64,000 nt of DNA from Candidatus Micrarchaeia archaeon (GTDB lineage Archaea > Micrarchaeota > Micrarchaeia > CABMEP01), in NCBI GenBank assembly GCA_038886535.1, contig JAVZXS010000001.1, forward strand, positions 100,954 through 164,953, written 5' to 3'. This document shows positions 438 through 3,762 of this stretch, in pieces. A program made the position numbers and the translations under genes. The notes under the pieces are model-generated. The model did no database searches, was not told where the DNA came from, and saw only the letters and a list, made by a program, of their open reading frames with translations. The stretch's first letter is position 1. Each line of letters starts with the position of its first letter.

Positions 438-468
438 AATTGATATTTAGTGTGAAGATATTAAAATA

Positions 469-532
469 TTGGCTCGGCAGTTACTTCGATCATCAAAGTT
501 ACCTCAGACTGGGACAGTATCGTCATCGCCAA
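469..532 (-). ncRNA. Box C/D methylation guide sRNA (D' guide fits 23S rRNA Gm2251, E. coli numbering)
   Basis: Minus strand reads UUGGC-G-AUGACGA(C)-12 nt-CUGA(D')-GGUAACUU-UGAUGA(C')-12 nt-CCGA(D)-GCCAA; 5-bp terminal stem and canonical 12/12-nt guides. Confidence 0.85.
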
Positions 533-589
533 TAAGATTATGACGCTTTTATTTTTATTGCTTTTGTTTTTAGGCTAACAAACTAAATT

Positions 590-2976: not shown

Positions 2977-3762
2977 ATGTTGGAATGGATATTTGTTTTG
3001 ATTGTAATAGGAATTATGTCTATCAAAATAGTTATGCAGTATCAAGAAGGAGTGGTGTTTAGGTTGGGTAAGTTTGCTAGATCCGCAGGACCTGGCTTGA
3101 ACTTTGTTATCCCTTTCATAGAGGAGATTAGATATGTTGACAAGAGAATCACAACTATAGATATTCCAAAGCAAGAGGTAATGACTAAAGACAATGTTCC
3201 ATTAGGTGTAAATGGCGTAGTCTTCTATAGAGTTGAGGATTCAAAGAAAGCAATACTTGAGATAGAGAATTATCATTATGCTATATCTCAATACGCCCAG
3301 ACTGCATTAAGAGATGTCATAGGTGGAAAAGAACTAGATACAATACTCACAAACAGAGAGGAGGTTGCAGATGAAATAAAATTAATAGTTGACAAGGAAA
3401 CAAGCGAGTGGGGCGTAGACATTATAAACATAAAAATTCAAGATATAGAATTGCCTGCAGATATGAAGAGAGTGATGGCAAAGCAGGCAGAGGCAGAAAG
3501 AGACAAGAGAGCAAAGATAATTGAGAGTGAGGCCGAATTCGCAGCAGCACAGAAGGTATCAGACGCAGCAAGGCTTCTTTCATCAACTCCAGGTGGATTG
3601 CATCTTAAAACGCTATTAACTATATCTAACGTTGCATCTTACGATGGCAATTCCGTAATATTTGTGACACCAATAGAAATACTAGAGGCAATGAAGGGCT
3701 TCGCAAAGAAAGATGGATCAAGCGAATCTGATAAAGAAACAAAAGAAAAAGGTAAGAAATAA
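2977..3762 (+). CDS. SPFH/band 7 (stomatin-like) membrane protein
   Basis: N-terminal TM; GVVFRLGKF, VDKRITTIDIPKQEVMTKDNV, QAEAERDKRAKII. Confidence 0.92.
   Translation: MLEWIFVLIVIGIMSIKIVMQYQEGVVFRLGKFARSAGPGLNFVIPFIEEIRYVDKRITTIDIPKQEVMTKDNVPLGVNGVVFYRVEDSKKAILEIENYHYAISQYAQTALRDVIGGKELDTILTNREEVADEIKLIVDKETSEWGVDIINIKIQDIELPADMKRVMAKQAEAERDKRAKIIESEAEFAAAQKVSDAARLLSSTPGGLHLKTLLTISNVASYDGNSVIFVTPIEILEAMKGFAKKDGSSESDKETKEKGKK

Follow-up and report, generated by a model that had tools for sequence, protein, structure and literature searches.

Does the short segment at positions 469 to 532 of the window (the whole 64,000-nt stretch of contig JAVZXS010000001.1 analyzed here) encode a guide RNA, and which nucleotides of the ribosome would such an RNA address? 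An earlier note, made from the letters of the DNA, had proposed a bipartite box C/D sRNA for the methylation of G2251 in the 23S rRNA P-loop. According to our analysis, the segment is, with a probability of about 85%, the gene of an independently transcribed archaeal dual-guide box C/D sRNA of ~60 to 65 nt from a Ca. Micrarchaeum-like DPANN archaeon, predicted to guide methylation in the P-loop and in helix 74. Such an sRNA would very probably direct the 2'-O-methylation of G2251 and of a second base nearby.

Read from position 532 to 469, the minus strand of the DNA is TTGGC-G-ATGACGA-TACTGTCCCAGT-CTGA-GGTAACTT-TGATGA-TCGAAGTAACTG-CCGA-GCCAA, followed by TATTTTAA; in RNA form it is UUGGC-G-AUGACGA-UACUGUCCCAGU-CUGA-GGUAACUU-UGAUGA-UCGAAGUAACUG-CCGA-GCCAA, followed by UAUUUUAA. 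The earlier note had placed every box, the two 12-nt guides and the stem UUGGC/GCCAA correctly (Table 1). The guide spacers between C and D' and between C' and D are each exactly 12 nt, matching the spacing of ~12 nt of box C/D RNAs, and the terminal stem of 5 bp can be extended to 7 bp by pairing 534-528 with 473-467. Boxes C (AUGACGA) and D (CCGA) are off consensus here, and we counted this against our explanation; among 34 aligned members of the family, position 5 of box C and position 2 of box D are variable, while the GA dinucleotides that would form the sheared G-A pairs of the kink-turn are invariant. The internal D' and C' boxes are degenerate across the family, yet their GA and UGA are kept. 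The whole element lies in a 152-nt gap whose two flanking genes are encoded on the same strand as the sRNA; a 382-aa ORF stops 57 nt ahead of it, and 31 nt separate its end from the start codon of iorA, an indolepyruvate-oxidoreductase-like gene.

Table 1. Features of the sRNA locus, in coordinates of the window.
Feature	Position	Strand	Remarks
Terminal stem, 5' half, UUGGC	528..532, extendable to 534	-	pairs with 473-469
Box C, AUGACGA (consensus RUGAUGA; C at position 5)	520..526	-	family RUGA(C/U)GA; TGA and GA invariant
D' guide, UACUGUCCCAGU, 23S P-loop target	508..519	-	12/12 pairing
Box D', CUGA	504..507	-	GA alone conserved family-wide
D'-C' spacer, GGUAACUU	496..503	-	in the family, variable sequence and a length of 3 to ~25 nt
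Box C', UGAUGA	490..495	-	TGA conserved in the family
D guide, UCGAAGUAACUG, 23S helix 74 target	478..489	-	target from LSU scan and covariation
Box D, CCGA (consensus CUGA)	474..477	-	family C[C/U/G]GA; one CCUA in genome G079
Terminal stem, 3' half, GCCAA	469..473, extendable to 467	-	pairs with 528-532
U-rich tract, UAUUUUAA, possible archaeal oligo-U terminator	461..468	-	predicted from sequence only
A/T-rich AAUAAAAAUAAAAG, possible TATA box, ~20-30 nt upstream	546..559	-	likewise predicted; weak at 33% G+C

A strict C/D'/C'/D pattern ([AG]TGA[TC]GA, 10-13 nt, CTGA, 3-12 nt, NTGATGA, 10-13 nt, C[TCG]GA) matched the whole 1.137-Mb genome, which has 33% G+C, at a single place, the sRNA locus, and gave 0 matches in 30 simulated genomes produced by a first-order Markov model with the same dinucleotide statistics. 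When the Rfam families were searched, none was reached at or above its gathering threshold, and the matches were exclusively to C/D box families: the best was sR44 (28.9 bits versus a cut-off of 45), followed by snoPyro_CD, sR39, sR1 and SNORD31. The SNORD31 match (17.7 bits versus a cut-off of 40) covers the guide plus the box, UACCGCCCCAGUCUGA versus UACUGUCCCAGUCUGA. Since no threshold was reached, the sRNA is better regarded as a new family within the C/D class than as a member of a curated one.

How widely the RNA is kept bears directly on whether it is a gene. The suggestion of a DPANN-like genome was borne out by the relatives of the neighboring iorA, which at 93 to 97% identity belong to Ca. 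Micrarchaeia/Ca. Micrarchaeota and at 74% to a Ca. Micrarchaeum sp. BLAST of the 79-nt region returned just 14 usable homologues, in the genus, family and class, and the covariance model built from these 14 was needed to see the full spread. By searching with this model, we found the sRNA in 184 of the 301 Micrarchaeia genomes at 44 to 88 bits, in one copy and rarely two, so that the comparison with related genomes proposed earlier revealed a class-wide RNA with guide-target covariation. Among the 34 aligned members, the terminal stem is 85% paired and carries 25 double-sided changes, against 8.7 +/- 2.1 after shuffling, with 0 of 500 shuffles as good. The iorA neighborhood is kept only within the genus; the gene context differs outside it, in keeping with a gene that stands by itself and carries its own promoter. 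Two families of the Micrarchaeia set (f5 and f10) have fibrillarin and no match to the covariance model, so the sRNA either is not indispensable or was lost, moved or diverged in them. Beyond the phylum, weak matches of 24 to 36 bits occur in 21 of 251 Nanoarchaeota genomes. The best 10 of these 21 share a homologous D guide and not the P-loop guide; the combination of the two guides thus looks specific to Micrarchaeia. From these alignments, the sRNA appears to be an older helix 74 guide that was combined with a P-loop guide in Micrarchaeia specifically.

The assignment of the D' guide to the P-loop, with G2251 under the N+5 rule, is supported by this genome's own 23S rRNA, whose gene (C1:437-3625) lies on the same contig as the sRNA. 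The target is own LSU 2295-2306 (contig C1 2731-2742, E. coli 2247-2258), and the guide forms 12/12 pairs with it, comprising 10 Watson-Crick and 2 G-U pairs, with 10/10 pairs in the core. It is the sole mismatch-free match of this guide apart from its own antisense when up to 2 G-U pairs are allowed and both strands (2.27 Mb) are scanned. Counted from box D', N+5 is the second G of GGGG, own G2299, corresponding to E. coli G2251. The P-loop sequence that the earlier note had given, RCUGGGGCGGUA, is not the one present: the own 23S reads GCUGGGGCAGUA. Accordingly, the expected number of two G-U wobbles stands and their placement does not, as they fall on guide positions 1 and 7, while position 9, where a wobble had been expected, forms a Watson-Crick A-U pair. 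The rRNA has A at E. coli 2255, where CGG had been expected after GGGG, and the guide carries the matching U.

Comparison of the 21 genomes with both sequences reveals how tightly this duplex is kept. Guide positions 2 to 10 are paired in 21/21 and position 11 in 20/21 (the mismatch is in G025), while positions 1 and 12 are free to vary; the ten constrained positions agree with the ~10-bp guide-substrate duplex of C/D RNP structures. At E. coli 2255 the pair is A-U in the own family (5 genomes), G-C in 13 and G-U in 3, and, as judged from the alignment, these three states are three steps of a compensatory path. The G2253-U wobble at guide position 7, two positions from the target nucleotide, is constant in 21/21; in G148, a genome without P-loop data, the guide U has moved to position 6.

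The D guide finds its best partner in the rRNA, AAGUUACCUCGG, within own LSU 2598-2609 (C1 3034-3045), corresponding to E. coli 2434-2445, with N+5 on own U2602, that is, E. coli U2438. We take E. coli 2434-2445 to be the 3' strand of helix 74, running into G2447-A2451. Two alignments gave this placement, that of the LSU in Rfam and one in E. coli numbering from the supplement to Dennis et al. 2015. In this genome two positions of the duplex are mismatched, 1 and 8, the latter as C-A; this leaves 9/10 core pairs, and such a match (2 mismatches in 12) would lack significance if taken from this genome alone. Across 25 genomes, positions 2 to 7 and 10 are always paired; position 4 is U-A in 6 genomes (two families) or C-G in 19, and position 10 is U-A in 4 (four families) or C-G in 21, both without exception. 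With phylogeny ignored, associations of this kind would arise by chance with probabilities of 6e-6 (position 4) and 8e-5 (position 10). Exactly one C-A mismatch is found in 25/25 genomes, at position 8 in 18 and at position 9 in 7, and because neighboring positions covary without exception, it belongs to the conserved make-up of a real duplex that coevolves.

Other possible targets, which the earlier note had suggested looking for in the 16S rRNA and tRNAs, did not emerge for these guides. The D guide has no match in the 16S rRNA with at most 1 mismatch; its four mismatch-free matches in the genome are all in ORFs, none of them in the 42 tRNAs, and were set aside as targets.

We also observed that box D' together with the spacer (496-507, minus strand, CUGAGGUAACUU) is 12/12 complementary to the D-guide target AAGUUACCUCGG, in this genome only. 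The CUGAGGUAACUU/AAGUUACCUCGG duplex consists of 11 Watson-Crick pairs and 1 G-U pair and surpasses the D guide's own pairing. In the relatives examined from the genus, GGAAACUU stands in place of CUGAGGUAACUU and leaves one mismatch to the D-guide target. This complementarity may be due to chance or may be the remnant of a guide duplication.

It could be argued that the locus holds no RNA gene at all and that the boxes are a chance motif or part of a cis-regulatory element, either a leader of iorA or a trailer of the upstream ORF. A position in a 152-nt gap, on the strand of both neighbors and only 57 nt and 31 nt from them, would suit such an element. However, we give this reading almost no credence, because the pattern was absent from all the simulated genomes, the element is a single-copy one in 184 genomes with differing gene contexts, and covariation is seen both in the stem and between the guides and their targets; the iorA leader in particular was dropped, as iorA synteny is confined to the genus. 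If the RNA is genuine, its D guide might still point elsewhere. The earlier note had directed it, with reserve, to the central loop near E. coli 2496 (ACCUCGAUG) instead of helix 74, and E. coli 2493-2502 in many archaea, UGCUACCUCG, is indeed similar to the helix 74 target AGCUACCCCG. However, the own sequence there is CUUGGUACAUCGCUG, and the region reads UUGGUACAUCGCUGUCGG in the class, with 4 mismatches to the own guide; moreover, scanning the LSU with as many as 2 mismatches allowed gave the helix 74 site alone, and changes in the guide follow those in helix 74. The central loop is thus a very unlikely target.

A genuine C/D RNP could also have been selected mainly as a chaperone or timer of rRNA folding that holds the P-loop and helix 74, with the D guide serving as a non-methylating anchor owing to its C-A mismatch. 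The constancy of this mismatch at position 8 or 9 in 25/25 genomes and of the G-U pair at P-loop guide position 7 in 21/21 gives both duplexes the look of deliberate weakening; both targets belong to one peptidyl-transferase neighborhood, ~185 nt apart in E. coli numbering, and 6 nt separate the end of the D target from an insertion site of the own 23S. Such roles of dual guides have been discussed (PMC7994747). Against it, N+5 falls on G2251 in exactly the register of SNORD31, Nm is widely conserved at G2251, and the duplex footprint of positions 2 to 11 fits that of methylation-competent C/D RNPs; a chaperone role is, besides, compatible with methylation. As the main role of this RNA we hold it to be unlikely, and we retain the reading of a dual methylation guide.

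A dual methylation guide of this kind would work as follows. L7Ae would bind the C/D kink-turn and the C'/D' kink-loop, after which Nop5 and fibrillarin would assemble. The D' guide would open helix 80 of the nascent 23S rRNA and pair with E. coli 2247-2258, so that fibrillarin could 2'-O-methylate the nucleotide opposite guide position 5, the P-loop G2251. The D guide would bind E. coli 2434-2445, the helix 74 3' strand that leads into the peptidyl-transferase loop, and put U2438 into the second active site. With both strands held by the sRNA, the folding of the region might also be helped.

The proteins that this mechanism needs, fibrillarin, Nop5 and L7Ae, are all encoded in the genome, as the earlier note had expected. 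Fibrillarin scored 294.8 bits and Nop5 216.5 bits against their profiles, and an L7Ae fragment gave 133 bits to TIGR03677; the second L7Ae-family match in the genome is L30e. The co-occurrence of fibrillarin with the sRNA was considered as a test and found uninformative, for fibrillarin is present in 293 of the 301 Micrarchaeia genomes, even in families without the sRNA. RlmB, whose absence had been anticipated, was not detected, because the single SpoU-family protein is TrmJ-like: it reaches 192 bits with the TrmJ/YjtD model (cut-off 167) and falls short with the RlmB model TIGR00186 (47 bits, cut-off 160). With the assembly 88% complete, the absence of RlmB is unproven.

Guides to the same nucleotide have been described elsewhere. 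Dennis et al. 2015 predicted methylation of consensus G2520, the equivalent of E. coli G2251, in 3/7 archaea, and the G2520 labels in their alignment belong to Pyrobaculum calidifontis sR36, Thermoproteus tenax sR7 and Methanopyrus kandleri sR13/sR45 (PMC4644070). These are likewise dual-guide archaeal C/D sRNAs with N+5 of one guide on G2251, but their hosts are hyperthermophilic Crenarchaeota and Methanopyrus with 50 to 130 sRNAs each, their partner guides differ (an sR7 in the table of Dennis et al., for example, couples G2520 with U2544), and they have no sequence relationship to the present sRNA beyond the guide. Unlike them, the present sRNA is a class-wide single-copy family of mesophilic/acidophilic DPANN archaea with ~1-Mb genomes. 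In eukaryotes this position is served by SNORD31/snR67, and in bacteria Gm2251 is made by RlmB (PMC11542601). SNORD31 (U31) and yeast snR67, which guide 28S Gm4196 and 25S Gm2619, respectively, address the same target nucleotide in the same register (site equivalence from PMC11542601). The Rfam consensus of SNORD31, UACCGCCCCAGU-CUGA, aligns with UACUGUCCCAGU-CUGA here, with U for C at guide positions 7 and 9. However, the eukaryotic RNAs act in a snoRNP with Nop56/Nop58, and the present sRNA stays below the SNORD31 cut-off of Rfam. RlmB in bacteria and Mrm1 in mitochondria yield the same predicted product, the P-loop Gm2251, but are protein-only, stand-alone enzymes of the SpoU family, and no RlmB-type gene is detectable here.

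The closest counterpart of the D guide is that of Nanoarchaeum equitans sR14, AAGGAGUAGCUG, which is near the Micrarchaeia class consensus ACGGAGUAGCUU and is likewise predicted to target E. coli U2438 in helix 74. Its partner is not a P-loop guide; in the ten Nanoarchaeota genomes with the best matches, the second guide is a GGUUAUCCCCG-like one aimed at E. coli 2443-2452 next door. The rRNA of N. equitans has U at E. coli 2441 and hence no C-A mismatch; given this normal pairing with sR14, the A in the guide is possibly ancestral. Our literature search found no paper linking Micrarchaeota to box C/D sRNAs or fibrillarin. In its mechanism the sRNA is an ordinary dual-guide C/D RNA, as far as its sequence tells, and a new conserved member of a known RNA class.

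Two other C/D-like elements were seen in the same genome. A ~114-nt insertion in a hairpin loop of the 23S rRNA (contig C1 2788-2913) looks like an embedded box C/D guide, with the layout AUGAUAU, AAUGAACAACCU, CUGA, a variable hairpin, GUGAUGA, GGUUGAACAGCGA and AUGA and with guides of 12 and 12 to 13 nt. The genus shares it with one further family member (G007), and none of the class-level relatives examined has it. Guide 1 pairs with the A-loop of the 23S rRNA in which it is embedded, with N+5 on E. coli U2552, and in G007 a U2555A change in the A-loop is accompanied by a compensatory A-to-U change in the guide, giving a perfect 10-bp duplex. The best Rfam match of the module is weak (E = 4) and is to yeast snR52, which guides at the U2552 equivalent; the two align on the guide itself. 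No FtsJ/RlmE-type protein emerged from a crude motif scan of the genome. The module may be an excised intron or a retained expansion. A second free-standing C/D sRNA candidate lies at C2:219955-220019 (+) and reads GATGATGA-CAATGGATGAAT-CTGA...TGACGA-ATGATTGGCGGT-CTGA. Its D' guide forms 10/10 core pairs with own LSU 2860-2871, adjoining the A-loop, and its D guide matches 16S ACCGCCCGUCAA with 1 mismatch and 1 G-U pair, with N+5 possibly on E. coli C1402.

The peptidyl-transferase region of the 23S rRNA carries two more insertions, at C1 ~3052-3150 and ~3175-3215. The former, of ~98 nt, directly follows GGGGGUAA (E. coli ~2450/2451), 6 nt past the D-guide target, and the latter, of ~40 nt, follows GAGAGUACC; some relatives have 23S insertions at the same or nearby sites, and those of this genome are likely rRNA introns. 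At E. coli 2493-2508, every readable 23S of the class has CAUCGCU(G/A)UCGG, where the sequence is normally the near-invariant CCUCGAUGUCGG; this reading, from the 23S of relatives at loci L030-L090, would put a C where E. coli has A2503.

A broader picture can be sketched tentatively. In this small genome, the "universal" ribose methylations, for which bacteria have dedicated enzymes, may all have passed to RNA guides, G2251 to the present sRNA, U2552 to the 23S-embedded module and 16S C1402 possibly to the second sRNA, with the P-loop/helix 74 guide acting in addition as a release-timed chaperone of peptidyl-transferase-center assembly through duplexes weakened on purpose, one by its invariant G2253-U wobble and the other by its invariant C-A mismatch. 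We regard this extended picture as doubtful.

The finding does not change the understanding of C/D RNPs, since P-loop guiding is established in eukaryotes and had already been predicted for other archaea, and the rRNA-embedded A-loop guide is a more unusual lead than the P-loop sRNA. It does add an unannotated, class-wide RNA gene to the genomes of Micrarchaeota and provides an unusually clean natural case of coevolution between a guide and the rRNA it targets; otherwise, the guides of archaea have been described as fast-evolving and without a universally shared site (PMC7994747). For the organism itself, it would mean that a DPANN symbiont with a genome of ~1 Mb keeps guidance by RNA for a ribosome modification that is among the most conserved.
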